Origin: Alphaproteobacteria bacterium
GTDB lineage: Bacteria; Pseudomonadota; Alphaproteobacteria; Bin95
Assembly (NCBI GenBank): GCA_965205265.1
Contig: CBDBGH010000003.1
Span: 3,648,001-3,712,000, forward strand
Length of the DNA: 64,000 nucleotides
Direction: 5' to 3'
The number at the start of each line of letters is the position of its first letter. Positions within the stretch are counted from its first letter, which is position 1. The notes under the pieces are model-generated. The model was not told the origin of the DNA and did no database searches. It saw only the letters and a list, made by a program, of their open reading frames with translations. Both the position numbers and the translations under genes were made by a program. Shown here piece by piece: positions 1 through 14,413 of this stretch.

Positions 1-2
1 CG

Positions 3-194
3 CAGAATTGTGATCGCTGTGATCCACCGCAGGCGAATGGTCGCCAAATCATCCGAGTCGAGTGCAGCGGAGAAATCATGCTTGGCTCGATAAGCATCAC
101 GTAGAACGCGCCGCGCCGCAAGGGCATCGTATTTCGAATATCGATTATTCTTCTTCGCCCTGCTTCTGCGAGTGTTTTGCCAGGTCCTGGCCAC
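3..194 (-). CDS. Partial hypothetical protein running off the left edge
   Basis: GTG at 194 with GGAG upstream; open frame VARTWQNTRRSRAKKNNRYSKYDALAARRVLRDAYRAKHDFSAALDSDDLATIRLRWITAITIL to the window edge. Not in the ORF track; translated by hand. Confidence 0.4.
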   Translation of the reverse strand, partial: MARTWQNTRRSRAKKNNRYSKYDALAARRVLRDAYRAKHDFSAALDSDDLATIRLRWITAITIL

Positions 195-249
195 GGTGAA
201 GCTCCAGAGTGTTCGGAACCCGCGTCAACGGTTCCTGCCGGTGGCGTGT

Positions 250-388
250 CGAGTGCGGCTTCCGGCGATGCTCCTTCGGGAAGGGCATGCAGGCAAGGAC
301 ATCGTGCCCGGTCTCGTCCAGGAAGGTAGCGAACCTGGGCGCCCCGGCCCTGAGCCGGACCGCGACCTGTCGCCACTGGACGCCAGCG
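250..388 (-). pseudogene. IS256-family transposase remnant
   Basis: Minus frame reads QWRQVAVRLRAGAPRFATFLDETGHDVLACMPFPKEHRRKPHST, a decayed match to the IS256 C-terminal segment (QWRxVADQLRPK...LDEAExDVLAYMxFPKEHRxKLHST). No start codon or rest of gene. Confidence 0.7.
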
Positions 389-825
389 CATTTCTTCTCT
401 GTGTTCCTCTTTTTTTCTCAATGAGGGGTTGCAATGGGAAAGAAAATCTAACATAACGGGAAGCGGACGGCGCAAGAGGAGTCAGCTCTTGCACCGCCCT
501 GACCAAGGATCTTCTGGAGAAAGATCGCATGGCTGCTCACGAACTTAGCACGGCCCCGACGCCGGCTGTCAGCCCATACGACCGTCCCTGGCAACCGGCG
601 CGAACCGGGATTCCGCCCGGCATTTGCGCCGCCTCCCGGCGCGCGCCCTCCGGCCGCGCCCGGCGGTCATTGCGCCCGGAGACAGTCGGGGCTCACGCCG
701 CCCGCCCGCCCGCGGCGCATTCGCTGAATCCCTGAGTCCCCGGCGCCGTCCGGCGTCCGGCGATGACCGGCAACGTCCTGCGCTTCACAGGCGCAGGCGA
801 CAGGCTGTGGAACTGTGAGGAGACC

Positions 826-1704
826 ATGACCGACAGCGACTTCACCCTGCCGGAGGCCGCACCCGCCGTCCGGCTCGGGCCGAACCCCGACAACGGCCGC
901 GACCTGGTGGTCGGCGACGTCCATGGCCATTTCGCCACGCTGCGCCATGCGCTGGCCGAACTGGAGGTCGGCGCGGGCGACCGGCTGTTCTCGCTCGGCG
1001 ACCTGGTCGACCGCGGCCCCGACTGCTTCCAGGCAAAGGCCTGGATCGAGGGTTCGGCCCTCCCGGCTCTGGGGCCGGGACAGGCCCCGGCGCGGTTCGA
1101 CCTTGTCGTCCGCGGCGATCACGAGCAGCTGATGCTCGACGCGCTGGGCCCGCAGGTCTCGGCGGCATACAGGCCGCTCTGGCCGGCCGACTGGAACCTC
1201 TGGCGTCTCAATGGCGGAGACTGGTGGGAGGAGGGGGACCCGGTCGACCCCGCATCGGGGGGAGTCTGCCCCGGACTGCGATCCGGGAGGACAGGCGATG
1301 CCCGGTCCTGGGCCGTGGCGCTCGCGGGGCTGCCCTTCGCGGCCCGCATCGAGACGTCGCACGGCCCGGTGGGCCTCGTGCATGCCTGCCCGGTCCACCG
1401 CTCATGGGAGGCGCTGGAAGAGGCGCTCCGGCAGGACGGGCCCGACGGCCGCCGCACGCGCACGCGCGCGCTCTGGAGCCGCGTCCATCACCGGACCCGC
1501 CGGCCGGAGACCGACGGGCCGGTGGCGGGCGTGCGCGCCGTCCTGACCGGCCACACGCCCATGCCCGGGCCCGTCTGGCGCGCGAACGTCCTCGATATCG
1601 ACACCGGTATCGTCCGCCAGGGCATGCGCCGCCTCACTGTCGCACGTATCGACACGAAGGAGATCGGGACATGGACCTTCGACCGGGTGCCTGGCGAGAC
1701 GTAA
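826..1704 (+). CDS. Metallophosphoesterase, PrpA/PphA (lambda phosphatase)-like Ser/Thr protein phosphatase
   Basis: GDVHG, GDLVDRG, GDHE (variant of GNHE), LVHA, GHTP and IDTG motifs; GAGGAG RBS before ATG 826. Confidence 0.85.
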   Translation: MTDSDFTLPEAAPAVRLGPNPDNGRDLVVGDVHGHFATLRHALAELEVGAGDRLFSLGDLVDRGPDCFQAKAWIEGSALPALGPGQAPARFDLVVRGDHEQLMLDALGPQVSAAYRPLWPADWNLWRLNGGDWWEEGDPVDPASGGVCPGLRSGRTGDARSWAVALAGLPFAARIETSHGPVGLVHACPVHRSWEALEEALRQDGPDGRRTRTRALWSRVHHRTRRPETDGPVAGVRAVLTGHTPMPGPVWRANVLDIDTGIVRQGMRRLTVARIDTKEIGTWTFDRVPGET

Positions 1705-1910
1705 TGACAACCGGCCCGAAGACGCCATCCGGGATCGTGGGGGAACTGCGCTTCGGGATGAACAGCGCAGGGCAGTTCAACTTGTTCCTCTATGCGCCAT
1801 GCTCAAGGTAGCTACAGGCCAATAGGCCGCGCTCTGCTGCATCGCCTCCCCATAGACGGCCTGCGTCGAACGGATACCGTCTATGGGGAGGGACCGGCGA
1901 CCGGAAGGAG

Positions 1911-2957
1911 TCAGCAGCAATTGTCGTTGGGATGGTCTTGGTCGTCGTCTTCCCAATCGGCTTCTTCCTTGCCAGCAGCTCGACGCCGCACACGTCCAGC
2001 GAACTCTCGGTAGTGGATTTTCCCGTCTGCGTAGTCGGCCAGGAGGTCTTGGTAATTGTCGAAGCGGGTACGTGCATCTGGAAGCTGCTCGGGCAAGGTC
2101 GTGCCGATGAAACTCAAGAGGCGGGCGTCAGGCGCGTCGCCGACTCGGATGTCGTTGAAGCCGAGCGAGTCTTGGCGCATTGCGCGGTCAGCCAGACCCC
2201 TATCGGTGACGTGATAGAGCTGGTTGAGGGTTTGATAGAGAATTACGCCGCACTCGCCGAGGACATCGAAGGTAGCGCGCGGAAAGCGGCGAGCGACGAG
2301 GATCGGAACGCAGTTCAGCGCGACACACTTTTCAAGTAGCCGCTTGACTTCGTCCGTATCGGGGTAAATCCACCTACGGAAGCTCTTTGCCTCGACACCG
2401 GCAAACCCCGCTGTGCGATGCAGATAGAGGAAGTCGAGCAGACGTCCCTCGGGTATTGCGCGGCCCCCGATGTGGGCGGGTGGTTCCTCCTTGCGGTAGC
2501 GGCTCTTTCGTTCTGCGACGGACGGGTCGAAATCGGGAAATCGGCCGAAGTAGGGAGCATTGGATTGGGCACCAAGTGCGCGGAAGATGGCAAGTTCCAG
2601 GCACTGGCCCCGACGATCCGAAACGGCTGGTTTAGAAAGTGCACGGAGAACGCGCCTCAGCGTGGCGAGGCGTGCTTGTACGCCTGTTTCCGGGGCATCG
2701 GGAAGGTGGAACCACGACGGATCGTCGTTGATGCCGACAATCTCCACTAGGTCGCCATCGCGAACGAGGATCTTGCGGGCCATGCCCAATATATGAGGCT
2801 CCAGCGGCTGGGCGCCCGTGTCGCAGATCTCGTGTTCGAGCATCCGCGCTGTCATGACGACTCGACGGGAGAGGACGTCGCGCAGCCGAGCCTTGGCGAG
2901 CGCGAGGTCGGCCGGATCCGACTCCGGGTGCGATGACGTTGGGGGGCGACGCGCCAT
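1911..2957 (-). CDS. Hypothetical protein with probable PD-(D/E)xK restriction-endonuclease-like fold
   Basis: 348-aa ORF with GGAGG RBS; RGQCLE...LLDFLYL...GVEAKS pattern fits E...D...ExK; acidic C-terminal tail. Divergent from the conjugation operon. Confidence 0.6.
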   Translation of the reverse strand: MARRPPTSSHPESDPADLALAKARLRDVLSRRVVMTARMLEHEICDTGAQPLEPHILGMARKILVRDGDLVEIVGINDDPSWFHLPDAPETGVQARLATLRRVLRALSKPAVSDRRGQCLELAIFRALGAQSNAPYFGRFPDFDPSVAERKSRYRKEEPPAHIGGRAIPEGRLLDFLYLHRTAGFAGVEAKSFRRWIYPDTDEVKRLLEKCVALNCVPILVARRFPRATFDVLGECGVILYQTLNQLYHVTDRGLADRAMRQDSLGFNDIRVGDAPDARLLSFIGTTLPEQLPDARTRFDNYQDLLADYADGKIHYREFAGRVRRRAAGKEEADWEDDDQDHPNDNCC

Positions 2958-3019
2958 GGAATTGGAGCCTCCCTCAGGATAGTGAGTCAACACAGCGATT
3001 ATATCTTAATTGAATGGTC

Positions 3020-3052
3020 TTCCAATCACACTGTGCAGTTACTATAATTGGA
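3020..3052 (+). promoter_or_regulatory. Sigma70-like promoter of the peptide-E2-E1-JAB operon with overlapping short inverted repeat
   Basis: TTCCAA (3020-3025), 17 bp, TATAAT (3043-3048); TCCAAT (3021-3026) and ATTGGA (3047-3052) form an inverted pair over the -35 and -10. Confidence 0.55.
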
Positions 3053-3076
3053 TACTCTCAACTGAAGGATGGGACC

Positions 3077-3271
3077 ATGGCACGAAAACCTACGATCGAG
3101 GAGCTGGAAAGCATCCTGGACGACGAGGAGGACATCCCGATCGAGATACTCCCCAACGGCGAGATTCGGGCGCTTGGAGGTAGCGACGCGGCGGAGCGGA
3201 ATTTCCAGAAGCCGCTGACGATGCGTGAGGACCTCGGCGGCGAATACGGACGGCGAGGTAACCAAGCATGA
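3077..3271 (+). CDS. 64-aa acidic peptide; candidate conjugation substrate/modifier
   Basis: AAGGA/GGGA upstream of ATG 3077; MARKPTIEELESILDDEEDIPIEILPNGEIRALGGSDAAERNFQKPLTMREDLGGEYGRRGNQA; stop overlaps the next start (ATGA at 3268). Confidence 0.75.
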   Translation: MARKPTIEELESILDDEEDIPIEILPNGEIRALGGSDAAERNFQKPLTMREDLGGEYGRRGNQA

Positions 3272-3642
3272 ATCTGGCGCGAATCCGCGAAGACATCGCC
3301 GCTGCGCAACGGTATTTCCAATATGTTGAGGGCCGGGCGACGCCGGAAGGTGGCTTGATGGCGCTCATCGCGCTGCAGACCAGCGGGCGCCTCTACACCC
3401 TCGGCGTGTCGTTTCCAGATTCGTACCCGAACGCGATGCCCGAGGTACATGTCAGGAAACCGTCGCTGTCATACTCACCGCACCAGTACCTGCACGACCG
3501 GATCTGCTACCTCCACCCGCACATGTGGAACCCGGGTCGTCACAACCTGACCTTCGTCATACAGCGCGCCGCGAAATGGCTCGGCAAGTATGAGGTGTAC
3601 CGGAAGACGGGGAAGTGGCCGGGGGCAGGTTTGGACCATTGA
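3268..3642 (+). CDS. Prokaryotic E2/UBC-like conjugating enzyme (E2a)
   Basis: FPDSYPNAMPEV...SPHQYLHDRICYLHPHMWNP...KWLGKYEVYRKTGKWPG: YPxxxP, PH...IC catalytic Cys, WxP, and a C-terminal W..YE...TG.WPG as in CBASS-type E2s. Confidence 0.8.
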   Translation: MNLARIREDIAAAQRYFQYVEGRATPEGGLMALIALQTSGRLYTLGVSFPDSYPNAMPEVHVRKPSLSYSPHQYLHDRICYLHPHMWNPGRHNLTFVIQRAAKWLGKYEVYRKTGKWPGAGLDH

Positions 3643-3646
3643 GACG

Positions 3647-4246
3647 ATGAGCAACACTCAACGCCAGGCGACTGTGAAGCTGATCGAGGGGCAGGCATCT
3701 GGCCCGCGGTCCAACGATACGCACATCGAGTTCAAGCCCCTGCCGATGATGGCGCTGCGCAGCAGCCCAGGGGAGGTGCTCGACGAAGTGTCGAAGGAGG
3801 GGGCCGCCTACCTGATCGAACGCAACGGGCAGCAGAAAGCGTGTCTGGTTCCCATATCGTGCTTTCTGCCGGATATCCAGCGATCACGCGTAACGGCGGA
3901 ACTCGACAGACTCGAGGACTCCGTGGAGAAGTACCGCGTGGCAATCAGCGCCGAGCGGGAGATGCAGTTCCTTTTCCGCGAATTCAGCGGCGACACGCGA
4001 TTGGAGGTGGCGGTGACGCTGCCCCATGGCTACCCCAACAAGGCGCCCGTGGTGACGGCTGAGCCGATCGAGGAAGGCTGTCCGCACCGGTGGCCAGACG
4101 GGACGTTATGCCTCTATGGCGCAGTGGCGGTGTGGAACCCGGGTAGGCACGACGTGATGCACGCAGTCGCGCTCTTCCGGCGGTGGATCCAGCACTACAC
4201 CGTATGGCGGCAGACAACCGAGTGGCCGCGGGAGGGGTTGGAATGA
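3647..4246 (+). CDS. Phd/YefM-like DNA-binding domain fused to E2/UBC-like domain (E2b)
   Basis: N-terminal MMALRSSPGEVLDEVSKEGAAYLIERNGQQKACLVP (Phd/YefM pattern); C-terminal LPHGYPNKAPVV...CPHRWPDGTLCLY...WNPGRH...W...Y..W..T.EWP. Confidence 0.75.
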   Translation: MSNTQRQATVKLIEGQASGPRSNDTHIEFKPLPMMALRSSPGEVLDEVSKEGAAYLIERNGQQKACLVPISCFLPDIQRSRVTAELDRLEDSVEKYRVAISAEREMQFLFREFSGDTRLEVAVTLPHGYPNKAPVVTAEPIEEGCPHRWPDGTLCLYGAVAVWNPGRHDVMHAVALFRRWIQHYTVWRQTTEWPREGLE

Positions 4247-5085
4247 TGACTGACGGTCTTTTTGCGAGGGTTGAGCCTCTGTTCGACGTCGACGCATTCC
4301 GGGACCAGTGGGTGCTGATCGCCGGTTGCGGGTCGGGCGGCGGCCAAGTAGCGCTGCAGCTGGTCATGTCGGGAGTCAGAAAGTTCATCCTGGTGGACAT
4401 GGACGAGGTCGCGGTCGAGAACATCATCAGACATGTGTGCGGCCTCCGTTATGTGGGCTGGCGCAAGACCGCGGCGCTCGCCGACGTCCTCAAGGATCGC
4501 AACCCGGAGGTCGAGATCAGGTCGTTCAACGAGGATGTTCTCGAATGGCCGGGCTTGGAAGACGAGGTTGAGCGGGCGAGCGTGGTCGTGATCGGAACGG
4601 ACAACGAGCCGAGCCGCTACCGGCTGAACGAAGTATGCGTGAAAACGGCGACGCCGTTCACGGTCGGGCGCGTGTTCACCCGCGGCATCGGCGGCGAAGC
4701 CTACGCATACCGGCATGGAAGCACCGGATGTCTGGCCTGCCTGGAGGGGGTTCTGGAACGCACCCGGTTCCGGGAAGGGGTGCGCGAGATCGACCTCGCA
4801 ACGGAGGAAGAGCGCCAAAAGATGTACGACCTTGAAATCGAGGAGATCAAGGACTCGCCAGGCTTGTCGGTGGACATCGGCTTCATTGCCGCGTTTCACA
4901 CGCGGCTCACGCTGGACGCACTCGGTGAAATGGCCGACGAGCGGCCGAAGTTCATGACGCCGCTCGAGGAGAACTACCTCGTGTGGGGCAACCGGACTGT
5001 CCACCCGTTCTCGAAGAATTTCCAACTGCAGCGGATGTCCTTGCAGCCGCAGAAAGGCTGCAATGTCTGCGGAGGGCAGGTATGA
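4243..5085 (+). CDS. ThiF/MoeB/E1-like adenylating enzyme
   Basis: GCGSGG, DMDEVAVENIIRH, conserved K, TDN..SR, and two Zn-binding CxxC motifs (CLAC, CNVC); ATGA overlaps at both ends. Confidence 0.9.
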   Translation: MMTDGLFARVEPLFDVDAFRDQWVLIAGCGSGGGQVALQLVMSGVRKFILVDMDEVAVENIIRHVCGLRYVGWRKTAALADVLKDRNPEVEIRSFNEDVLEWPGLEDEVERASVVVIGTDNEPSRYRLNEVCVKTATPFTVGRVFTRGIGGEAYAYRHGSTGCLACLEGVLERTRFREGVREIDLATEEERQKMYDLEIEEIKDSPGLSVDIGFIAAFHTRLTLDALGEMADERPKFMTPLEENYLVWGNRTVHPFSKNFQLQRMSLQPQKGCNVCGGQV

Positions 5086-5996
5086 ACGCGATGAGAGACG
5101 TACGTTCGGTCAGGGTCGAAATTGCCGCGCGGGCCTTGGAGGCCGTTTTCGAGGAGTGCGACCGCTACGACAGCGACGAGACGGGCGGGCGGATGGTGGG
5201 GCACTTCTCGCTGGAGCGGAACACGCTGGTGGTGAGGGCGCGTGGAGTCATAGAACCGGGGCCTAACGCCAAGCGGACCAGCGCCAGCTTCTTCCAGGAC
5301 GGTGACTACCAGACCGAGATCTTCCGGCGGATCGAAGCCAAGGACCCGACGGTCGAGCACCTGGGCAACTGGCACACGCATCATGTGAACGGGTATCCGA
5401 ACCTGAGCGGAGGCGACGTGGCAACCTATCGCCGCATCGTGAACCACGAGCTGCACAACCTGGACTTCTTCTACGCGTTGCTGGTGACGGCGCGCCGTGA
5501 GGGACGGTCGGGACTCGGCCGTTACACGGTGCGGCACTACGTTCTGTTCCGCGGAGACGACGGGGTCTATGAGGTAGATCCGGGGAATGTCCGGATAACG
5601 GACGAGGCGACGATCTGGCCGAAAGACGCAGCCGGGCCGGGCGACGGGCTCGAAACCGACCCTCAACGAATGAAGCAGGCTGCTGCCATCCGCGCGCACG
5701 ACCTGCAGGTCCTCAAGGTCATGTACCCTTCGCTGAGTCCGCGACAGTCGGCGCGGTCGGAGATGTTCTTCTGGAAGGGGCCGTTGCCGCTGATCGATGG
5801 TACTGAAGCGGGGCTGCGGATCCTGGAAGTGGAAGACGATGAGGGGCTTGCCTACTACCTGAGGGTGAGCCCGGCCTCGGCGGAGGCGAGGGAGCTGTAC
5901 GAGACGCGCTTCCGAAGCGCGAGCGAGGCAGTGCGCACGCTGGAGGTGAGCTTGGACCGGGCGATCTACCGGTCTGCCGCTGGATCGGAGGGCTGA
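5082..5996 (+). CDS. JAB/JAMM (Mov34/MPN) metallopeptidase with additional C-terminal domain
   Basis: ETGG glutamate, PGP.A..T...F, and LGNWHTH-x8-SGGD Zn motif; about 110 further C-terminal residues of unknown function. Confidence 0.85.
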   Translation: MNAMRDVRSVRVEIAARALEAVFEECDRYDSDETGGRMVGHFSLERNTLVVRARGVIEPGPNAKRTSASFFQDGDYQTEIFRRIEAKDPTVEHLGNWHTHHVNGYPNLSGGDVATYRRIVNHELHNLDFFYALLVTARREGRSGLGRYTVRHYVLFRGDDGVYEVDPGNVRITDEATIWPKDAAGPGDGLETDPQRMKQAAAIRAHDLQVLKVMYPSLSPRQSARSEMFFWKGPLPLIDGTEAGLRILEVEDDEGLAYYLRVSPASAEARELYETRFRSASEAVRTLEVSLDRAIYRSAAGSEG

Positions 5997-6826
5997 TGAC
6001 GATGGAGATATTGACGCTCTATGCGGGTCAGGGGAATTTCGCGGTTGTCCGCCATGGTGGGCAGGCAATCGTGGTGGATACCCGGCGCCCGGCCGAATGT
6101 TCGGACGACATCGCGTCGAAGGTGAGCCGATTTCTGAGGGGGCGGGAACTGGTGGGCATCGTGTTGACGGGGTTCGACGACGATCACGCGGACCCGGACG
6201 GACTCGACTGGCTGCTGGAGGATTATGCGGCGGCCTGGGTGATGTATCCCAAGTACTACAAGGATACGGAAAACACGCAGCGGGTGTTCAACGTAATCCG
6301 CAAGCATGAACGACGGCGCGAGAACACGCACAATCCACTTGAGCGTGTGTCGGTTCGCCTCGACCGGCTAGACTCACGGTACCTCGACGAGCTGTCCGAT
6401 GAGTTCGACCTGGAGCTCTTTTCGCCGCACATCGAGGACATGGACAACTCGAACAACTGCAGCATCGTACTGAAGATCGAAGGAGTCGGACCAGACGGAT
6501 TCGGATACCTCGTGACCGGCGATACCGAGAACCCGCGCTGGGACAGGATTGTGGCTCTGTTCGACGATGCCTTGGCGGCGGACGTCATGGCTGCACCGCA
6601 TCACGGGTCCAAGAATGCGGCGCATCCGGGCATGGCCCTGGCGGTTTCGCCCGACACGGTGCTGATCAGCGCCGGCATCGACAATCAGTACGGACACCCG
6701 GACGCGAAGGCGGTGGCGCTCTATTCGCGCGTCGCCGAGCATGTGTTCCAGACCAACATCCGGACAGGGATTTCGTGGCTCACGAGGCGCGTGGGTAGTG
6801 ATTTCCCGACGCAAAGGGTGGCGTAA
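5996..6826 (+). CDS. ComEC/Rec2-type metallo-beta-lactamase-fold hydrolase
   Basis: AGQG, VVDT, TGFDDDH (variant of THxDxDH), NNCSIVL, LVTGDTE, APHHGSKN, ISAG..NQYGHP; TGATG overlap with the JAB gene. Confidence 0.85.
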   Translation: MTMEILTLYAGQGNFAVVRHGGQAIVVDTRRPAECSDDIASKVSRFLRGRELVGIVLTGFDDDHADPDGLDWLLEDYAAAWVMYPKYYKDTENTQRVFNVIRKHERRRENTHNPLERVSVRLDRLDSRYLDELSDEFDLELFSPHIEDMDNSNNCSIVLKIEGVGPDGFGYLVTGDTENPRWDRIVALFDDALAADVMAAPHHGSKNAAHPGMALAVSPDTVLISAGIDNQYGHPDAKAVALYSRVAEHVFQTNIRTGISWLTRRVGSDFPTQRVA

Positions 6827-7093
6827 CGAAGGGTCGGAGGATGCCTGGACCATTGGTCCCAGAGCGAACTTCAAGAACGCATGCCATTCCGATTTGACTG
6901 CAGTGGGCGGAACGCGAGGCGCGTCACCTGCTCCACGAAGGCGAGGGCAAGTGGGACTCGCACCGACCCCCGACGACAGCATCCTGCTTGCGACGATCTC
7001 GAAAGAGACGCGAATGCGTGGGTGGTGGGCGTAATGACGATCATCCGCAAAGGTGGGTGTGTCGGCTTCTCTACGCGGGCTTGGTGAGCAGCG

Positions 7094-8236
7094 ATGAAGG
7101 TCGCGCTCGCACTCTCCGGGGGCGGCGTCCGAGCGGCCGTGTTCCACTGTGGCGTGCTGCAGCGCTTGGCGCTGGACGGCTTGTTGGAATCGACGGCGTT
7201 TGTGTCGACGGTCTCAGGGGGCAGTCTGGTCGTGGGGTTAATCCTCTGCCAGAACGGCCATCAATGGCCGGGCAGCAAGGAGTTTCTCGAAGCCGTGCTG
7301 CCGAGCGTTAGGACTCGGCTCACGACGGCGACCCTGCAATGGTCCTATGCGTGGAGGTCGGTCGTGCTCCCCTGGAGACTTGCCCGCGGGCGTGCGCACG
7401 TTCTCGCGGGCCTGCTTGAAGCCCAATGGGGAATCTGCGGGACGATGCAGGACGCACCTGAGACACCCCGTTGGATGGTGAATGCGACCTGTTACGAAAC
7501 AGGGCGGAACTGGCGGTTCAGCCAGCGACGAATGGGCGACTACGCTACGAACTATGTGTTGAAGCCGACGACGCCAATCGCCGATGCGATCGCCGCTTCG
7601 GCCGCCGTGCCGGGGGCAATCGGACCGCTTGCGATCCGGTCGGCCGACTACGATTGGCACCGCTACGAGAGTGGACAGCTTGTGGCGAGCTCGACGCCTG
7701 CAAAGCGGTACGCGTTGTGGGACGGTGGAGTGTACGACAACTTGGGCGTGGAATCACTGTTCAAACCCGGCGGCGGATTCCGTGACGGCTTCGACTTCCT
7801 GGTGGTGAGCGACGCATCGGCACCGCTGTCCCTGGACATTGGGAAGGTCAAGCGAATGTTCATGCCATGGCGGCGAGCGCTTCGTCTGGTGGACGTGGCA
7901 ACGGAGCAGGTGCGGGGGTTGCGGGCGCGGTCGCTGATCGCCGAGTTTCAGCGAGCCCCGGCAGCGGGCGTTTATGTAAGGATTGGCAACACCGTCGAGA
8001 CGGTTTACGGCGCCGTACGCCGAGAGCCTCCCGCCGGGGAGCATCTCGGGGAGATCGACGTCGCCCGCGCGGAGCGTTTCAAGACGACTCTCCGACGACT
8101 TAGCGGGGAAGAGTTCGAACTCTTGAGGCGACATGGATTCGAGGTGGCGAACGCGACGTTGGCAACGCGGCAGCCCGAGCGGTTTTCGTACAGGGTGTTG
8201 TCCGGCGCGCCGCTTCCACGCCGATCAGCACCATAA
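7094..8236 (+). CDS. Patatin-like phospholipase
   Basis: ALSGGGVRA oxyanion loop, STVSGGS nucleophile elbow, ASAAVPG, DGGVYDNLG catalytic Asp. Confidence 0.9.
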   Translation: MKVALALSGGGVRAAVFHCGVLQRLALDGLLESTAFVSTVSGGSLVVGLILCQNGHQWPGSKEFLEAVLPSVRTRLTTATLQWSYAWRSVVLPWRLARGRAHVLAGLLEAQWGICGTMQDAPETPRWMVNATCYETGRNWRFSQRRMGDYATNYVLKPTTPIADAIAASAAVPGAIGPLAIRSADYDWHRYESGQLVASSTPAKRYALWDGGVYDNLGVESLFKPGGGFRDGFDFLVVSDASAPLSLDIGKVKRMFMPWRRALRLVDVATEQVRGLRARSLIAEFQRAPAAGVYVRIGNTVETVYGAVRREPPAGEHLGEIDVARAERFKTTLRRLSGEEFELLRRHGFEVANATLATRQPERFSYRVLSGAPLPRRSAP

Positions 8237-8334
8237 GTGACTGATCCCGTTGGATACCGAAGTATCAGGCCCCCGCGCATAGCGGCATGCCAGATCGAGT
8301 GCCCCGAAAGGCGGGAAGGCACGCCTGAGCCCTG

Positions 8335-10218
8335 TCAGAGCTTGAGCGCGCGCCCCTTGCGGCGGACCTTCTTCGGGGTGGGAATCTTCTCGCCCGGCCA
8401 GAGGATGTCGGCATAGGCGAGCGGGCGGTCGGCGAAGCCGAGCCGCATGGCGGGCGTGGCGCCGTCCACGCCGGTGTGGATGAAGTTGTTCACCGCCCGG
8501 AAGACGTCGAGATATTTCTGCACCATGTCCGGCCTGTAGGGCGCATAGCCGTACCAGACCTGCTGCCAGCGCCCGCTCGCCGTGTCGATCGGGCGCTCCA
8601 GGGCCGAGAGGAACCGCCGGGTCAGCTGGAAGACATTGTCCACCTGCGCGACCGAGGCCGCGAGATAGAGCCGGGCCCTGTCGTCGAGCTCCATATCCGG
8701 GCTCTCCGTGATCCAGCGGACCTCCTTGCCGGGCTCCTGGGCGGTCGGCACCGGGTGCCGCAGCCAGCCGTCCTCGGGCAGGCCGTCCGCCCGCAGGGCG
8801 GTCCGGATCATCTCGAAGCCGAGCTCCTCCTCCGTCATGCCCTCAAGATGTCGAGCCCGGGCGAAGGCCCGCATCTGCCTCTCGGTCTCGCGGTAGATGC
8901 GGTTGCGCTCGTCGATCGGGCAATCCTTGGCGTAGCGCACCAGGAAGCCCTGCGCGCGACCCTCGCAGACCTGCTCCTGGAAGGCGCACATGAAGGACGC
9001 GATGGTCGAGAGATGCTGGTCCATCGACAGCTGGAGCCGCTCGACGCCGGCGCCCTTCAGGATCTCGCGCAGCACGAACATGTGCCCGAGCGTCCGGTAG
9101 CCGGTCTTCACCAGCATGCCGGAGCGCAGCATGGTGTCGCGCAGCGGCCCCTGGCCCGGCACGATCTCCATCTCCGCCACGTCGGCATAGGCATTGGCCG
9201 CCCGGAAAGCGTCCTGGATGTCGCCGACGGCCTGTTCGGCCGCCCGGGCGCCCATGCGGCGCTGGCCGGTGCGCCCGCTGCGCATCTCGTCGCCGGCGAG
9301 CCAGAAGCGGGCATATCTGCGGAACGCCTCCTTGCGGGTCAGGTCGCCCAGTTCGGCCGACTCCTGGTTGACGTCGAACGGGTCGAAGCGCGGATCGTGG
9401 TTCACGTCCAGTTCGAGGATGAAGCGCGAGCCGGCATCGACGCTGCAGCAGGAGGTCACCTCGACCGTGCGGCGCTGGACCTTGCGCGGCCAGTTGACCA
9501 TGAGCGACTGCGAGTCGAGGGCGATGTCCATCTCGGCCGGCAGGCGCCGCGCGCCGGTCAGGAACGCCCGTGTGACGGCGCCGTTCATCTCCCGGCAGCG
9601 CCGGTGGATGAAGTCGAAGACCGTGTAGTAGTCCTTGCAGCTGTTGAGCCCGGCCCCTTCCACCGTGCGGCGCATCGGGGACTTGTTGGCGATTCGAGAG
9701 AGCACATCGGCGGCGAGCGACTGGTTCTTCGCGTGGATCCTGGGAGCCTTGCGCGAGACGAGGATGCGCCGCAGGCAGGCCTTGCACTGGTAGTAACGGT
9801 TCTCCGGCGTCTTGTAGTAGCCGCGCCTCCAATAGCGATCCCGATGCTCGCCGACCGAGAGGCCGAAATTGGCGCAGCCCTCAGTCTTGCAGGCGAAGTG
9901 GTGCTCCAGCGGCCGGGCATAGTCGGAGATGCGCTCGATCTCCTCGGCGATAGCCGCGTTCGAGCGGATGGCGCCCTTGCCCCTGCAGACCTTGCACTCG
10001 ATGGCGGGTTCCTGGCCCTTGGCGGTCGAGTTCAGCTTGTACCGGAGATCGCGGTCCCGGCTCGGCCCGGTCTTGCCGCGCTTCGTGCGCGCCGGCACGC
10101 CGAAATTGGCGCAGCCCGGCGTGCGGCAGTGGTTGACCTGAACCGGGAACGGTTCTCCGAGGAGCCTGGCATGGGCGATTTCGGGGACCCGGAGCGAGCG
10201 GCGGGGCGTTGAAGCCAT
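8335..10218 (-). CDS. Large Zn-ribbon/DDE transposase-like protein (IS1/IS6-like C-terminus)
   Basis: N-terminal CRTPGCANFG, CKVC, CKTEGCANFG, CKAC; putative acidic triad IALD, SMD, VDNVFQLTRR; C-terminal NF...TPAMRLG typical of IS1-like DDE enzymes; AGAGG RBS before ATG 10218. Confidence 0.6.
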   Translation of the reverse strand: MASTPRRSLRVPEIAHARLLGEPFPVQVNHCRTPGCANFGVPARTKRGKTGPSRDRDLRYKLNSTAKGQEPAIECKVCRGKGAIRSNAAIAEEIERISDYARPLEHHFACKTEGCANFGLSVGEHRDRYWRRGYYKTPENRYYQCKACLRRILVSRKAPRIHAKNQSLAADVLSRIANKSPMRRTVEGAGLNSCKDYYTVFDFIHRRCREMNGAVTRAFLTGARRLPAEMDIALDSQSLMVNWPRKVQRRTVEVTSCCSVDAGSRFILELDVNHDPRFDPFDVNQESAELGDLTRKEAFRRYARFWLAGDEMRSGRTGQRRMGARAAEQAVGDIQDAFRAANAYADVAEMEIVPGQGPLRDTMLRSGMLVKTGYRTLGHMFVLREILKGAGVERLQLSMDQHLSTIASFMCAFQEQVCEGRAQGFLVRYAKDCPIDERNRIYRETERQMRAFARARHLEGMTEEELGFEMIRTALRADGLPEDGWLRHPVPTAQEPGKEVRWITESPDMELDDRARLYLAASVAQVDNVFQLTRRFLSALERPIDTASGRWQQVWYGYAPYRPDMVQKYLDVFRAVNNFIHTGVDGATPAMRLGFADRPLAYADILWPGEKIPTPKKVRRKGRALKL

Positions 10219-10356
10219 GGCTCTGCCTCTTGTAATGAGGCGGTCCATCGTAACGCCGGAGGGGCTTCCTGTCAAGCCTGAATTAGAACATTGGCAAGTA
10301 AAAACAATGTGTTATCCGGGTTTCCTATCGACCCCCAGAGAATTCAAAGGAACTTT

Positions 10357-10504
10357 TGTGTCAGTTTATGACTGCTAAAATATGCCATATTATCAATGCA
10401 TTATATCGTATTTTGACACAGAATTTTCATCGGCTATCTCTCCGCCATAGCGGATGCTCCTTTTGTGGGAACCTGCTGTGAACTCGATACTCAACGTATT
10501 GATT
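10357..10504. promoter_or_regulatory. AT-rich spacer with two IHF-consensus sites and a TGTGTCA/TGACACA inverted pair
   Basis: TATCAATGCATTA (10391-10403, +) and AATCAATACGTTG (10492-10504, -) match WATCAANNNNTTR; TGTGTCA at 10357-10363 and TGACACA at 10414-10420. Confidence 0.5.
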
Positions 10505-10659
10505 TTCCGCCATTAACTGCCGCCGTTCAGCACCGCAACATGTTGCTTCGGAACGATTTCACGGGGTCAACGGCGGTGTCGAACAACATGGAGCGAGGCG
10601 CGCAAGCGCCGGATCGCGCCGGCCCGGGGTTTCGGTCGTGGCGCAGCGTCATGACGTGA

Positions 10660-10912
10660 ACGCGAACCCGGTCTTCAGTTGGCGACGACTATAGGGGCAC
10701 AGGCTGCGACCGGGGGCACCTGGCTCCGGCCGACGCCATGAAATGGTCGGAAGAAGCCATGAGCGGCAGCCTCTTCCTGGCGAATACCGCGCCGCAGGAC
10801 GGGGTAGGGTTCAGCCGGCACATATGGAAGGCGCTGGAGCGGGGGATGCGGCGCCGGGCCTGTGAACGCGGCCGGCTCCCTGTCATGACCGGGCCCCTTT
10901 ACGAGACCCGCC
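10660..10912 (+). pseudogene. DNA/RNA non-specific endonuclease (NucA/EndoG family) fragment
   Basis: DYRGTGCDRGHLAPADAMKWSEEAMSGSLFLANTAPQ...WKALE...TGPLY contains the DRGH motif; in-frame TGA immediately upstream, no N-terminus, and the 3' part runs into the ABC permease. Confidence 0.8.
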
Positions 10913-11932
10913 CTACCGCCCCCCTGCCGACCAGGAAGCGGCGGCAGTCCTGCCCTGTCCCTGCCTGTCCACACGGCGCCGGATGGCATCCTCAATGCTG
11001 CCGAGTATGCCTTTTGGCAGGAAGACGATGAACAGGACGAGCGCTACGCCGTAGATCGCGTTGTCGAGGCCGACGGCGTCCGTGCCAATGTAGATGCGCA
11101 GTATCTCGGCCAACAGCAGCGTGATGATGGCGCCGAAGGTCGGGCCGAACTGGGTAAACACCCCGCCCGCGACGACAGCGAACACGATCTGAAGCGAGAT
11201 ACCGATGCCGCTCACCGTGTCGGGCGCAACGAACAATTGGTATTGCACATACATCGCGCCGCCGAACGCCGTCATGACCGCAGAGAGCACGGTGATCTTC
11301 AGCTTTTCCCAGGTGACGTTGATGCCGGCGGCGGCGGCGCTGTCCTCGTCCTCGCTTATCGCATCGAGCGCATTGCGGACCATCGAGCGGTCCACTGCCC
11401 GCCAGACCAGGAGGCCGGCCAGCCAAACGACGACGGCGATCAGGAACCAGGTTTCCTTGTCCTCGAACTGCAGCGCGATATAGCCGGGCGTGTCGTCATT
11501 GCCCTTCGGCGTGGGCGTGAAGCCGAGCGAGCCGCCGGTATGGTCGCGCGTCGCGATCACCGTTTGCCGCACCACCTCCGTCAGCGCCAGGGTGACGAGC
11601 GCGAAATAGTGGCCCGTGATGCGGAACTTGAAGCAGGGGTAGCCGACGATCACCGCAAGCAGGGCCGCGAGCGCGAGCGCAATCGGGATGCCGAGCCAGG
11701 GCGTCATGCCGGCATAGTTCCAGAGCAGCGCCGTGGCATAGGCGCCGAGCCCCATGAAGGCGCCGTGACCGAGCGACACCAGGCCGAAACGGCCCATGAG
11801 CGACCAGCCGGTGTAGGTGAACGACCATATCAGGATCACGATCATGATATGCAGCGGATAGGACGGGATGCCGATAAGGGCCGCGATAGCGAGCAGCGCC
11901 GCGAAGGCTATCGGCAGGGTCAGGCTGTTCAT
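10913..11932 (-). CDS. Branched-chain amino acid-type ABC transporter permease (LivM-like)
   Basis: Hydrophobic; GLVSLGHGAFMGLGAY, GHYFALVTLA, AISEDEDSAAAAGIN; start MNSLTL overlaps the upstream stop. Confidence 0.9.
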   Translation of the reverse strand: MNSLTLPIAFAALLAIAALIGIPSYPLHIMIVILIWSFTYTGWSLMGRFGLVSLGHGAFMGLGAYATALLWNYAGMTPWLGIPIALALAALLAVIVGYPCFKFRITGHYFALVTLALTEVVRQTVIATRDHTGGSLGFTPTPKGNDDTPGYIALQFEDKETWFLIAVVVWLAGLLVWRAVDRSMVRNALDAISEDEDSAAAAGINVTWEKLKITVLSAVMTAFGGAMYVQYQLFVAPDTVSGIGISLQIVFAVVAGGVFTQFGPTFGAIITLLLAEILRIYIGTDAVGLDNAIYGVALVLFIVFLPKGILGSIEDAIRRRVDRQGQGRTAAASWSAGGR

Positions 11933-12903
11933 GACCGCCGCCCCATAATGCCCTCGGGCCGGACGAACATCATCGCGATGAAGAAGGCGAAGGCGAACAC
12001 ATAGCCCCACTCCAGGTCGAAGTGGTAGCCGCCGAGCGCAATCAGCTCGGACAGGATGAATGCGGCGATAAAGCCGCCCACCATGTTCCCGAGGCCGCCC
12101 AGCACGCAGATCATGAAGGTGATCGGCCCGAAGCTGAGGCCGACGAAGGGATGCACATCGTATTGCAGCACCAGCAGGCAGGCCGCGAGGCCGGCAAGGC
12201 CGCCGCCGATGGCGCTCGAAATCAGGTAGAGCCGGCCCTGGGATGCGCCCATGAGCGTCATGATCTCGCGGTCCTGGCTGATGGCGCGGATCGCCGTGCC
12301 CATGAAGGTTCGTGTCAGGAACAGGTAGAGGAAGGCGACGCAGGCGGCGGCGACGATGAAGGCCGCAAGCCGCGACCAGGAAATGTAGATGTCCTCGGTG
12401 AGCGGAAACGAGCCGAGCGAGACGCCCAGATTTCGGAAGTCGATACCGAAGGCGAGCGTGGCAACGCTCTGGAAGAAGAACAGCAGGCCTCCCGTCGCCA
12501 GCAGTTGGTTGATCGGTGCCGAGTCCAGCAGGTGACGGATGACCAACCGGTGCACGGCATAGCCGATAAGGGCCGTCAGCAGGATGCCCGCCGGCATGGC
12601 GAGCAGCAGCGGCACGCCGTAGTAGCTGTGCAGGTAGTAGATGCCGTACATGCCCAGCATCACGATCTCGGCGTAGCAGATCCAGACGACATCGACGACG
12701 CCGAAGATCAGGTTCAGGCCGAGGGACAGCAGAGCCAGAACGCCGCCGAGAAGCAGCCCGTTGATCATCGCCTCGTAGAGGAAAACGTCCGACACCGCGA
12801 AACCGAGATTACCCTCCCGTATGATCGCGGGCACATAGGCCAGGCACACGAACAGCCCTGCCGCGATTACGATCAGCCAGACGCGGGTGTCGATCCTGCC
12901 CAT
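11929..12903 (-). CDS. Branched-chain amino acid-type ABC transporter permease (LivH-like)
   Basis: LGLNLIFGV, GTAIRAISQD, VLGGLG, VRPEG motifs. Confidence 0.9.
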   Translation of the reverse strand: MGRIDTRVWLIVIAAGLFVCLAYVPAIIREGNLGFAVSDVFLYEAMINGLLLGGVLALLSLGLNLIFGVVDVVWICYAEIVMLGMYGIYYLHSYYGVPLLLAMPAGILLTALIGYAVHRLVIRHLLDSAPINQLLATGGLLFFFQSVATLAFGIDFRNLGVSLGSFPLTEDIYISWSRLAAFIVAAACVAFLYLFLTRTFMGTAIRAISQDREIMTLMGASQGRLYLISSAIGGGLAGLAACLLVLQYDVHPFVGLSFGPITFMICVLGGLGNMVGGFIAAFILSELIALGGYHFDLEWGYVFAFAFFIAMMFVRPEGIMGRRS

Positions 12904-12934
12904 TTCCGTTCCCCGTCCCCCGAAACGCCCGGCC

Positions 12935-13639
12935 TCAAAGGCCCATGTAGAGGCGCCGAATCTCGTCGCTCGCCGCCAGCTCTTCCGCCGAGCCGGTCAT
13001 CCGGATCGAGCCCGCCTCAAGCACGTAGGCCCGGTCCACGACGCGCAACACCTGCTGTACATTCTGCTCGACGATCAGCACCGTCAGCCCCTGCTCCCGG
13101 ATGACCCGGACCAGTTCGAAAATGCGCTGCACGATCACCGGCGCGAGCCCGGCCGAGGGCTCGTCCAGCAGCAGCAGCTTGGGTTCGCTCATCAGCGCGC
13201 GTCCGATGGCGCACATCTGCTGTTCGCCGCCGGAGAGCGTGCCGGCAAGCTGGTGGCGGCGCTCCTTCATGCGCGGGAACAGGTCATAGACGAAGTCGAG
13301 CCGCCGGGCGAAAGCGGCACGCGCAGAGGGCACAAAGGCGCCCATGCGCAGATTGTCCTCCACCGACATGCGCGGGAACAGGCGCCGGTTCTCCGGAACA
13401 TGCGCGATCCCGAGCTCCACTATGCGGTGCGGCGGCGTGGCGACGAGGTTCCGCCCTTCCATGTCCATGCGGCCGCCGCGCGCCGGGATAAGGCCCGAGA
13501 TGACCCGCATCAGCGTGGTCTTGCCGGCGCCGTTCGGGCCGATCACGGCGACAGCCTCGCCGGCCTTCACCTCAAGGGTGCAGCCGAACAACGCCTGGAA
13601 GGTGCCGTATCCGGCATCGACATTGGAGAGCGCGAGCAT
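12935..13639 (-). CDS. ABC transporter ATP-binding protein (LivF-like)
   Basis: GPNGAGKT, LSGGEQQM, LLLDEPS. Confidence 0.95.
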   Translation of the reverse strand: MLALSNVDAGYGTFQALFGCTLEVKAGEAVAVIGPNGAGKTTLMRVISGLIPARGGRMDMEGRNLVATPPHRIVELGIAHVPENRRLFPRMSVEDNLRMGAFVPSARAAFARRLDFVYDLFPRMKERRHQLAGTLSGGEQQMCAIGRALMSEPKLLLLDEPSAGLAPVIVQRIFELVRVIREQGLTVLIVEQNVQQVLRVVDRAYVLEAGSIRMTGSAEELAASDEIRRLYMGL

Positions 13640-13663
13640 GGGGTTCCGGCGTGCCGCCCTGTA

Positions 13664-14413
13664 TCAGCCCGGCGCCGCTACCGCGCCGGTATCGACCGTA
13701 TCCGTGCCGAGATAGACCTCGATCACCCGCGGGTCGTTCGCCACTTCCGCGGGCGTGCCCTCGGATATCTTCTCGCCGTGGTCCAGCACCATCACGCGGT
13801 CCACCACGCGCATCAGCACCCCCATGATGTGCTCAACCCAGATTACCGTGATGCCCATCTCGGCGCGGATCTTGCCGAGCATGTCCGCCGCCTGGTCCAT
13901 TTCGCTGTCGTCGAGGCCGCCCAGGCTTTCGTCGGCCAGCAGCAGCCGGGGTCTTGTCGCCAGCGCCTTGGCGAGTTCGAGCTTCTTGAGCCCGGCGGCG
14001 CCGAGGCTGCCCGTCTCGGCCCTGGGGTCGGTCGGCAGCCCGACCATCTCCAGCGCCTCCTCCGCCGCCTCCCAGGCCTCCGCCCGGCTGACGCCGTCCT
14101 GGCCGTAGAACCCGGCCAGCGCCGCGTTCTCCAGAATCGACAGCCGCCGGAACGGGCGCGGGATCTGGAAGGTGCGCCCGATGCCCATATGCACGATCCG
14201 GTGCGGCATCAGCCCGGCCAGTTCCCGGCCTTCGAAGCGGATCGAGCCGGCGGTGGGCGCAAAGGCTCCGGCGAGCATGTTGAAGATCGTGCTCTTGCCG
14301 GAGCCGTTAGGCCCGATCAGCCCCAGGATTTCTCCCTGCTCGACATCGAAGGAAACATCGTTCACGGCCGTGAAGCCGCCGAAACGCTTGACGAGATGTT
14401 CGACGGCCAGCAC
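13664..14413 (-). CDS. ABC transporter ATP-binding protein (LivG-like)
   Basis: GPNGSGKS, RTFQ, LLADE, VEH, C-terminal VIEVYLG. Confidence 0.95.
   Translation of the reverse strand: MLAVEHLVKRFGGFTAVNDVSFDVEQGEILGLIGPNGSGKSTIFNMLAGAFAPTAGSIRFEGRELAGLMPHRIVHMGIGRTFQIPRPFRRLSILENAALAGFYGQDGVSRAEAWEAAEEALEMVGLPTDPRAETGSLGAAGLKKLELAKALATRPRLLLADESLGGLDDSEMDQAADMLGKIRAEMGITVIWVEHIMGVLMRVVDRVMVLDHGEKISEGTPAEVANDPRVIEVYLGTDTVDTGAVAAPG

Follow-up and report, generated by a model that had tools for sequence, protein, structure and literature searches.

The 64,000-nucleotide stretch analysed here (hereafter the window) comes from the genome of an Alphaproteobacteria bacterium (assembly GCA_965205265.1, contig CBDBGH010000003.1, positions 3,648,001 to 3,712,000), and its open reading frame (ORF) list places seven co-oriented genes, all on the plus strand, between positions 3077 and 8236. 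The lead gene (3077–3271) encodes an acidic peptide of 64 amino acids (aa), the putative precursor of a protein modifier. It is followed by E2a (3268–3642, 124 aa), a UBC-fold protein that matches a PADLOC E2 model at 4.2e-11 and is the proposed catalytic E2; by Phd-E2 (3647–4246, 199 aa), in which a Phd/YefM-like N-terminal domain is fused to an E2/ubiquitin E2 variant (UEV) fold; and by E1 (4243–5085, 280 aa), a minimal adenylation enzyme of the ThiF/MoeB/MccB type. The next two genes encode JAB (5082–5996, 304 aa), a JAB/JAMM metallopeptidase proposed to process the peptide and to reverse its conjugation, and a metallo-β-lactamase (MBL)-fold hydrolase (5996–6826, 276 aa) that may be a nuclease-type effector or a regulated enzyme. 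A gene for a patatin-like phospholipase (7094–8236, 380 aa), one of several alternative genes of this downstream slot, ends the row. The genes are joined by ATGA overlaps at 3268, 4243 and 5082, by a TGATG overlap at 5996 and by a 4-bp gap before 3647, and the MBL stop codon is separated from the patatin start codon by 267 bp. An operon of six co-oriented genes with these junctions and a patatin gene farther on, together with the domain calls E2, Phd-E2, E1, JAB, MBL and patatin, had been put forward in the original prediction; the layout can be read directly from the DNA, and the domain calls are borne out by profile and fold matches. We propose that this cassette, on balance, probably represents an undescribed and widespread family of ubiquitination-like peptide-tagging defence systems, in which the modifier is a dedicated peptide of ~55–57 residues. 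The gene set, its motifs and a modelled contact between E1 and the peptide are what we observe, and from these we infer every reaction, function and chemical step.

The first six genes form a real and widespread unit. Of 5741 candidates, 1154 are related to JAB at E ≤ 0.001, and across 185,579 species genomes (one genome per species) JAB is encoded in 61 of 64 pattern matches. The carriers belong to at least ten phyla, including Pseudomonadota, Acidobacteriota, Gemmatimonadota, Binatia, Verrucomicrobiota and Planctomycetota, and further Elusimicrobiota, Eremiobacterota, Armatimonadota and Myxococcota. Among the 52 genome loci with sufficient flank, defined as at least 2.1 kb upstream and at least 0.9 kb downstream of JAB, tblastn with the window proteins recovers the complete order peptide–E2a–Phd-E2–E1–JAB–MBL in 45. 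The other seven are 5' truncated (L012, L042), lack Phd-E2 (L051, L056, L037) or have split genes (L046, L059), and they look truncated or decayed. The full order is thus found in unrelated genomes of many phyla, a recurrence that the original prediction had proposed as a check. A metagenome scan with the peptide profile was assessed on the best 80 of 271 confirmed loci, which are the most query-like and sample the family unevenly. Of these, 71 extend at least 400 bp downstream, and our script scores E2a directly 3' of the peptide in 62; the remaining nine are flagged since the E2a match begins before the peptide match ends, and E2a is present in all nine. Among the metagenome loci, 27 extend 3.9 kb or more downstream, and all 27 show the order E2a–Phd-E2–E1–JAB–MBL. 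Cultured carriers are Mesorhizobium sp. AR10, on plasmid pMspAR10a, and Bradyrhizobium genosp. A BDV5028. On pMspAR10a the cassette and its patatin gene adjoin an IS30 transposase, the peptide ends in ...LGGEY, and the genes are annotated in order as a hypothetical protein, E2, 'Phd/YefM family antitoxin', ThiF, two hypothetical proteins and patatin. Names taken from source annotations were limited to 'ThiF family adenylyltransferase' and 'hypothetical protein'.

The window peptide consists of a helix, a β-hairpin with the motif ILPNGE, and a flexible tail that runs to ...KKPLTMREDLGGEY and is followed by the 7-residue variable tail GRRGNQA. An AlphaFold2 (AF2) model built with the alignment places the helix at residues 7–14 and the hairpin at 22–32 and leaves the C-terminal half unstructured (predicted local distance difference test (pLDDT) score 68.6); the fold as modelled is not a β-grasp. 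The peptide has no match in Pfam or PADLOC, and a search of the ESM Atlas returned no usable match. Among 38 aligned orthologues, 17 columns are invariant, namely L10, L14, E17, I24, L25, P26, N27, G28, E29, P46, T48, E51, L53, G54, G55, E56 and Y57. The LGGEY motif is present in 57 of 57 genome-locus copies, of which 18 end at the Tyr, 38 add 2–12 residues that are not conserved and one is extended much further. When 1.84 billion representatives were searched with the profile, 589 family members emerged at E ≤ 0.001 (250 at E ≤ 1e-10), and [LIVM]GGEY is found in 138 of the best 150 of these 589. One representative, P0156, is a natural fusion of the peptide to E2a, for which cleavage would be required. 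Five others (P0200, P0202, P0210, P0258 and P0259) carry the peptide domain inside longer proteins, next to unrelated sequence on the N- or C-terminal side, some of it Cys-rich and some otherwise unassigned.

The enzymes of the cassette look active, as judged from their conserved catalytic motifs. At least 95% of 57 E2a sequences retain His72 and Cys80, a WNP motif is conserved as well, and the two E2 proteins give only weak RWD/UQ_con matches in Pfam. The N-terminus of Phd-E2 matches PF02604 (PhdYeFM_antitox) at 9.4e-5 in the window copy (22.5 bits, below the cut-off of 29.8) and at E ≤ 0.01 in 26 of 26 orthologues (best 6.8e-9), and its secondary structure fits the β-α-α-β-β order of Phd/YefM. 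Because no toxin partner is seen at the cassette, the Phd part is a domain rather than a toxin–antitoxin system. RefSeq names the Mesorhizobium copy (L164; NZ_CP080523.1, 115261–120167) 'type II toxin-antitoxin system Phd/YefM family antitoxin', which is misleading because the name covers one domain only and the toxin partner is absent. The C-terminus of Phd-E2 is modelled as a UEV/E2 fold (pLDDT 84.1), with the UEV of Vps23 as the top Foldseek match. Since 4 of 26 orthologues have Ser or Gly in place of Cys155 and the gene is missing from a few loci, Phd-E2 is probably not a further catalytic enzyme but a cofactor or regulator of the UEV type. The earlier claim of two E2s therefore stands as to fold and probably not as to activity.

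JAB matches Prok-JAB (PF14464) at 7.2e-6, with 26.3 bits against a cut-off of 25, and its JAMM residues Glu33, His98, His100, Ser109 and Asp112 are invariant. Its C-terminus carries a conserved extra domain of ~130 aa with no assigned function. The MBL protein matches Lactamase_B at 6.4e-5, conserves the metal motifs DxDH, SPH, TGD, HHGS and GHP, and is nearest to the C-terminal MBL domain of ComEC and to defence-associated MBLs. We rejected its assignment as ComEC/Rec2, since it scores 78.9 bits against the full-length ComEC model TIGR00361 (cut-off 190) and is related through the C-terminal MBL part only. The C-termini of the cassette MBLs are not conserved, and among the cassette proteins no Gly-type tail is seen besides that of the peptide.

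E1 matches ThiF (PF00899) with 99.7 bits (cut-off 28.1; 1.9e-28), and the match begins at residue 18. In an alignment of 27 sequences, the invariant residues comprise G28, G30 and G33 of the GCGSGG motif, R63, D120 and the Zn cysteines C163, C166, C273 and C276, and an invariant KDS205PG loop lies between the Zn motifs. In the same alignment, no crossover-loop catalytic cysteine is conserved between C166 and C273, the position at which Uba5, Atg7 and Cap2 carry theirs. The best solved relatives by profile are MccB (2.3e-19), MoeB and ThiF, with PaaA ranking later. A complex of two E1 chains and peptide residues 1–57, both supplied as alignments, was modelled along with three controls. Compared with 0.08 in the best of the controls, it reaches an ipSAE of 0.78; of solved complexes, 58 of 80 attain that mark, and of mismatched pairs, 2 of 110. 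The model runs have at least 83% of contacts in common, and the partner pLDDT is at least 63. In the model, the hairpin (residues 19–30) and the tail (residues 46–57) of the peptide contact E1 at residues 28–33 in the P-loop, 118–121 around Asp120, 142–152 and 204/206. The modelled geometry is that of the tail of a ubiquitin-like protein (Ubl) in an adenylation site, a type of contact for which the MoeB–MoaD, ThiF–ThiS and MccB–MccA complexes have already been solved; the model is blind to which end, Gly55 or Tyr57, is activated.

Taken through these proteins, the proposed pathway would run as follows. The peptide would be made as a precursor ending in ...LGGEY plus a variable tail, usually of 0–12 residues, and JAB would trim it, most likely after Gly55, with Tyr57 as the alternative site. 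Cleavage after Gly55 is favoured because it explains the invariant Glu-Tyr followed by a tail that is free in length and sequence, as in the precursors of SUMO, NEDD8 and UFM1. The E1 dimer would bind the hairpin of the peptide, thread the tail into its ATP site and adenylate the new C-terminus. For the transfer step, the E2 cysteine may attack the adenylate directly, or the invariant Ser205 or Tyr195 may form an oxyester, as in Bub. E2a would then hold the peptide as a thioester on Cys80 and pass it to an amine on the target. Phd-E2 would serve as an adaptor or UEV-like partner, and possibly as an autoregulator, through the dimerisation and DNA-binding fold of Phd/YefM, and JAB would also undo the conjugation.

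Several observations weigh against this pathway. None of the best 150 representatives of the peptide family ends at ...GG, and Glu-Tyr is conserved as strongly as Gly-Gly (3 of the 150 change GG but keep EY, and 5 do the reverse), so the activated end may be Gly55 or Tyr57. E1 lacks a conserved catalytic cysteine for the transfer, and its closest solved relative, MccB, makes a peptidyl-adenylate antibiotic, not a conjugate. Furthermore, the score of the complex measures model confidence, to which likeness to the solved E1–Ubl or MccB–MccA complexes may contribute, and the MBL could serve another role.

These features can also be read as those of a peptide that is never attached to anything, but acts as a pseudo-substrate, a regulator or an antitoxin-like inhibitor of E1, JAB, MBL or patatin until infection, while another protein is the conjugated moiety. 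The modelled peptide sits in the E1 active site with Glu-Tyr still attached, and the invariance of Glu-Tyr, the want of members ending at GG and the antitoxin-type Phd domain of the operon would all fit. Peptide copies on phages, described below, would make sense as antitoxin mimics, and the MBL of the 6A-MBL system ends in a Gly-type tail of its own. By comparison, the cassette MBLs have unconserved C-termini and the other cassette proteins lack a tail of this type; the tail of the peptide is shaped like those of Ubl precursors. In addition, the natural fusion of peptide and E2a speaks against a mere regulator, and the variable tails call for trimming, for which the cassette offers no protease other than JAB. 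We consider a purely regulatory peptide a serious alternative, though a rather improbable one.

The kinship of E1 with MccB raises a further alternative, maturation akin to that of ribosomally synthesized and post-translationally modified peptides (RiPPs). Here, an MccB/PaaA-like E1 would modify the C-terminus of the peptide, for example to a peptidyl-nucleotide, and JAB and MBL would process a toxin or signal. The ranking of the solved relatives, with MccB first at 2.3e-19 and PaaA later, a substrate that is a short ribosomal peptide, and an E1 without a catalytic cysteine are all consistent with it. However, the cassette encodes two E2-fold proteins, one of which retains its cysteine in at least 95% of sequences, and its E1, with a ThiF match from residue 18, lacks an N-terminal peptide-clamp/RiPP recognition element domain. 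No recurrent exporter or immunity gene is found among the neighbours, the conserved core of 55 residues is far above the size of an MccA-type leader plus core, and the neighbourhood is a defence island. RiPP-like maturation is thus very unlikely, and we return to peptide tagging as the favoured explanation.

The gene set fits none of the system models of PADLOC 2.0, NCBIfam r20 or Pfam, and we found no paper on the set or on the LGGEY and ILPNGE motifs in a literature search that left supplementary operon tables and some E2-fold surveys outside its reach. Both results agree with the earlier impression that the architecture is undescribed. The best PADLOC matches are of the CBASS type, with E1 matching PDLC00837 at 2.3e-27, JAB matching PDLC00895 at 2e-18 and the E2 match given above being to PDLC00876, and the MBL matches generic defence models weakly. 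With E2 and E1 encoded by separate genes, the CBASS-type matches speak for homology and not for membership. Cyclase matches in PADLOC are confined to a single cyclase model, whose C-terminal end is weakly matched by both E2 domains, and none of the seven window proteins matches a CD-NTase family in Pfam or NCBIfam. The cassette therefore has neither a CD-NTase nor a β-grasp Ubl, as had been stated from the DNA alone, according to the Pfam, PADLOC and NCBIfam scans and the AF2 model of the peptide. Against the NCBIfam models of 6A-MBL, E1 and JAB score 47 and 48.5 bits, compared with 320 for NF058523, and MBL scores 33 bits, compared with 220 for NF058524; in BLASTP, the cassette MBL is barely alignable with a true 6A-MBL MBL (E = 0.11). 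We rejected membership in 6A-MBL on these scores, which lie far below the cut-offs, on the separate genes and on the nine loci in which both systems adjoin.

Descent by decay or splitting from type II CBASS or 6A-MBL, with loss of the cyclase or of the fused architecture, has in its favour that the best PADLOC matches of E1, E2 and JAB are CBASS models, that 6A-MBL models are matched weakly and that patatin is a known type of CBASS effector. It is hard to reconcile with six genes that keep intact catalytic motifs in 45 of 52 loci across phyla, and with the absence of a cyclase from the 25 neighbour families listed (each with at least 2 of 134 flanking ORFs). The scores of 47 and 48.5 bits against a cut-off of 320 and of 33 against 220 point the same way, and a complete 6A-MBL adjoins the cassette in nine loci, so that the two are distinct. 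We regard this origin as close to negligible in probability. A decayed CBASS or Bil locus was likewise rejected as a candidate, given the conservation of the six genes across phyla and the lack of a recurring cyclase or Ubl; a CD-NTase or Ubl in most homologous loci had been named in the original prediction as the sign of such a copy, and neither recurs.

Comparison with individual systems sharpens these differences. 6A-MBL was listed by Iyer, Burroughs and Aravind in 2006 (Table 1, row 6a). A 2026 review credits it to Van den Berg et al. 2024, and the NCBIfam entries NF058523 and NF058524 name it anti-phage. It resembles the cassette in pairing an MBL-fold protein with the activities of E2, E1 and JAB in a defence context, with no CD-NTase and no β-grasp Ubl. 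However, 6A-MBL places E2–E1–JAB in one protein of ~665 aa and comprises two genes, whereas the cassette has separate genes, a Phd-E2 and a peptide gene, and the 6A-MBL enzymes end in a Gly-type tail, which cassette MBLs do not have. Bil, like the cassette, encodes a separate modifier, E2, JAB and E1 with no E3, and its modifier is conjugated in phage defence, according to PMC11601596 and PMC10557695. By comparison, the Bil modifier contains one or two β-grasp domains, whereas that of the cassette is modelled as a helix, a hairpin and a tail; the Bil E1 is a multidomain IAD–AAD–CYS protein with an inactive and an active adenylation domain and a mobile Cys domain, whereas the cassette E1 has 280 aa, one ThiF domain and no Cys domain; and Bil lacks the MBL, the second E2 and the Phd domain, all three of which the cassette has.

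Type II CBASS provides the closest E1, JAB and E2 profiles and includes patatin effectors (CapV). Its disordered C-terminal tail threads into E1 and its JAB (Cap3) antagonises conjugation, and we liken the cassette to it on both counts. It differs in having a CD-NTase and a fused Cap2 E2–E1 and in conjugating the signalling enzyme itself, whereas the cassette has no CD-NTase, separate E2 and E1 proteins and a small peptide. In Bub (6E/DUF6527), as described in PMC11601596, E1 also lacks a catalytic cysteine, and JAB cleaves a Ubl–E2 fusion, paralleling the single cassette fusion P0156. Bub has a Ser-type E2, β-grasp Ubls and a DUF6527 serine protease, whereas E2a has Cys80 and the Pfam scan of the cassette finds no such family. 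MccB–MccA, ThiF–ThiS and MoeB–MoaD share with the cassette a minimal homodimeric adenylase with a Zn Cys4 site whose substrate is the C-terminal end of a small protein or peptide, but they have no E2, no JAB and no protein conjugation, whereas the cassette has E2s and a JAB. ThiS and MoaD are β-grasp proteins, and MccA, a heptapeptide, is held by an additional clamp domain at the N-terminus of its adenylase. Pup is, like the cassette peptide, a largely disordered, acidic bacterial tag of ~60 residues with GG-Glx near its end. Pupylation uses a glutamine-synthetase-like ligase, whereas the cassette has E1, E2 and JAB, a motif followed by Tyr and no PafA/Dop-like match in Pfam. The cassette works most like Bil, uses enzyme domains of the CBASS type and shares the MBL theme with 6A-MBL, and it lacks defining features of each of Bil, CBASS, 6A-MBL and Bub.

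The gene following MBL varies among loci. The window patatin matches PF01734 at 7.6e-18 (65.8 bits; cut-off 27.7), and its translation contains the motifs GGGVRA (GGGxR), TVSGG (TxSxG) and WDGG (DGG). In 19 of 54 loci a patatin match on the same strand starts within 350 bp 3' of MBL, and 31 of 54 have one anywhere in the locus. Its standing as the effector is weakened by its absence from 23 of 54 loci and by the lack of any PADLOC effector model match for the window copy. Patatin is thus one of several alternative downstream genes and not a fixed member. A 254-aa protein family occurs in 10 loci (representative L019:9796–10560) and a 234-aa family in 7 (representative L036:4433–5137, with a weak transporter-like match), both mostly right after MBL. 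Neither has a significant match in Pfam, NCBIfam or PADLOC, and both are possible alternative effectors.

The surroundings of the cassette are defence genes in a setting that is mobile and low in GC. A complete 6A-MBL pair lies directly 3' in nine loci, often followed by patatin, and scores 385–403 bits against NF058524 (cut-off 220) and 572–644 bits against NF058523 (cut-off 320). Mokosh MkoA (846 bits) is downstream in two loci. A scan of the flanks covered 134 further ORFs of 220–650 aa within 3 kb in 51 loci, with four recurrent families excluded. Their PADLOC matches include MBL-type defence models (up to 8), PDC-M48B (6), AbiEii (3), retron-type reverse transcriptase (2) and Cas1 (2). 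No cyclase is among the 25 families listed for these ORFs, each with at least two members, so that a single match could have gone unlisted. Integrase, Fic and IS/transposase genes are nearby in some loci.

The MBLs of the nine neighbouring 6A-MBL pairs (L005–L009, L012, L013, L031 and L058; for example, L006:9778–10926) end in ...[PY][RG][AR]G plus 0–2 residues, as in PRAG, PRAGKS and YGRG. By analogy, this tail looks like the Gly C-terminus with a short pro-tail of the cGAS of type II CBASS. The sequences suggest that in 6A-MBL the MBL itself may be what the fused E2–E1–JAB conjugates.

Single components of the cassette are also found on phage contigs. A profile search identifies the peptide alone at 15 IMG/VR loci (L063–L077), and tblastn detects none of the enzymes within 6 kb; the full ILPNGE...LGGEY pattern is present in 13 of the 15. 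The peptide gene lies between the portal gene and the scaffold/major-head genes in L066 (5995–7065), L074 (3036–3230) and L075 (5977–6180), and likewise in L067, as judged by its clustering with L066. In L068 it is flanked by a major-head gene and a neck gene, and in L063 and L070 a terminase gene is ~3 kb away. L069 and L073 are two peptide copies of a single record, among replication genes and with coiled-coil N-terminal extensions. In L066, a 356-aa ORF that contains a hydrophobic segment begins with the peptide.

JAB alone occurs, by profile, at five further IMG/VR loci (L158:4890–5429, L159:5776–6504, L160:5998–6489, L161:5992–6501 and L162:5998–6510). These proteins have 163–179 aa, with motifs and catalytic residues intact and the C-terminal domain missing. 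No other cassette gene is found near the five, and in L160 the JAB gene is flanked by those for terminase and portal. In a quick maximum-likelihood tree, whose speed limits its weight, the five fall inside the cassette JAB clade, which a branch labelled 100* parts from three 6A JAB domains. The peptide profile has no match on the five JAB-bearing records, two of them complete, while it does match the genome of the window itself, and a search for JAB found none in five records that bear the peptide and of which four are at least 94% complete; this absence of a second component is weak evidence, as several records are fragments. A tblastn search with the peptide or JAB against 50,697 GenBank phage records (INPHARED) gave no match, and the copies are found only on uncultured IMG/VR contigs. 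Single components of host systems in ordinary phage genomes are a usual mark of counter-defence genes. Phages thus appear to answer the cassette with a lone peptide, which would act as a decoy, or with a lone short JAB, which from its sequence is a candidate deconjugase. Alternatively, the peptide may have originated in phages, whose copies would then be no counter-measure.

The window locus shows a compositional difference from its surroundings. GC content is 0.625 for 3077–6826 and 0.685 for the whole window, in line with the lower GC noticed earlier by eye, and the 5160-bp stretch has the fourth lowest GC among 118 segments of the same size. The low-GC stretch is bounded by a high-GC gene for a calcineurin-like (lambda-phosphatase-type) Ser/Thr phosphatase (763–1704, plus strand) and by a 646-aa ORF with Cys-rich N-terminal motifs (8335–10275, minus strand). 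The latter had been called transposase-like; its nearest ESM Atlas cluster is automatically named 'putative transposase' (0.97), but it has no match in Pfam, NCBIfam or PADLOC. The IS256 remnant proposed upstream was not recovered, as six ORFs in 1–735 are without any Pfam match at E ≤ 1. Directly upstream of the cassette and divergent from it, 1911–2993 (minus strand) encodes a 360-aa protein without a family match, which accompanies the cassette in the three closest loci (L002–L004, 63–77% identity) and not in distant ones. A search for a tRNA or att site beside the island found no tRNA in 1–14000.

The single sigma70-like promoter of the original prediction is upheld in part. A perfect TATAAT −10-like hexamer lies at 3043–3048 on the plus strand, 29 bp 5' of the peptide start codon, and may tentatively be assigned to the cassette, with a ribosome-binding site AAGGA read at 3064–3068 (plus strand). 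However, the candidate −35 element TTCCAA (3020–3025, plus strand), as read by eye, is weak with 3 of 6 consensus matches, and a promoter scan upstream of the cassette calls no promoter on the plus strand and one on the minus strand at 3025–2998. Operator-like repeats are limited to a weak 14-nt direct repeat at 3007/3045.

A small, acidic, largely disordered modifier with a GGE end is reminiscent of Pup, and the tagging might accordingly serve housekeeping or stress, in protein turnover or regulation as in pupylation, instead of phage defence. Its distribution and setting make this unlikely. The cassette is sporadic, with 61 loci in 185,579 species genomes, lies in low-GC DNA with transposase and integrase genes nearby, and adjoins 6A-MBL, MkoA and PDC-M48B. 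Moreover, the genes in its downstream slot are swappable and effector-like, and its single components occur on phages. On the favoured reading of the cassette as a tagging defence system, the output would be directed at phages, either through tagging of phage proteins, as in Bil, or through tagging that switches on MBL and a downstream effector, resembling the priming of CBASS. This variable effector would be patatin, the 254-aa protein or the 234-aa protein, and phages would counter with decoy peptides or deconjugase JABs. The original prediction of a peptide that is processed, adenylated and conjugated, with MBL and/or patatin as effectors, gains support from the co-conservation of the genes, the GG motif, the E1 model and the defence neighbours, as far as sequences and models can speak to it. 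We put forward more tentatively, as a possibility that falls somewhat short of probable, the wider proposal that a tag of ~55 residues without the ubiquitin fold, with an LGG tail freed by JAB from the LGGEY precursor, is passed through E1 and E2, that the cassette is a fifth and widespread bacterial ubiquitination-like immune family next to type II CBASS, Bil, Bub and 6A-MBL, and that phages counter it in two independent ways, by decoy tags made from their head-gene modules or by a de-tagging JAB.

To our knowledge, the cargo of every characterised E1–E2 pathway is a β-grasp protein or, in the case of CBASS, an entire enzyme moved by its tail. Conjugation by E1, E2 and JAB in bacterial immunity is already known; what would surprise is a modifier peptide that is not a β-grasp and the carriage of single components by phages. 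The lone phage peptide and JAB genes are a candidate anti-defence pair and offer a natural test of tag function; eukaryotic viruses carry deubiquitinases and deISGylases, to which the phage JAB would be a parallel if this reading is true. The adjacency of the cassette and 6A-MBL may help to explain the latter, and the cultured carriers in Mesorhizobium and Bradyrhizobium make work on the family practical. If the proposal is true, the cassette would be a compact, genetically encoded tagging system, the ubiquitin fold would be dispensable for E1/E2 chemistry, and the family would represent a new branch at the bacterial roots of ubiquitination.

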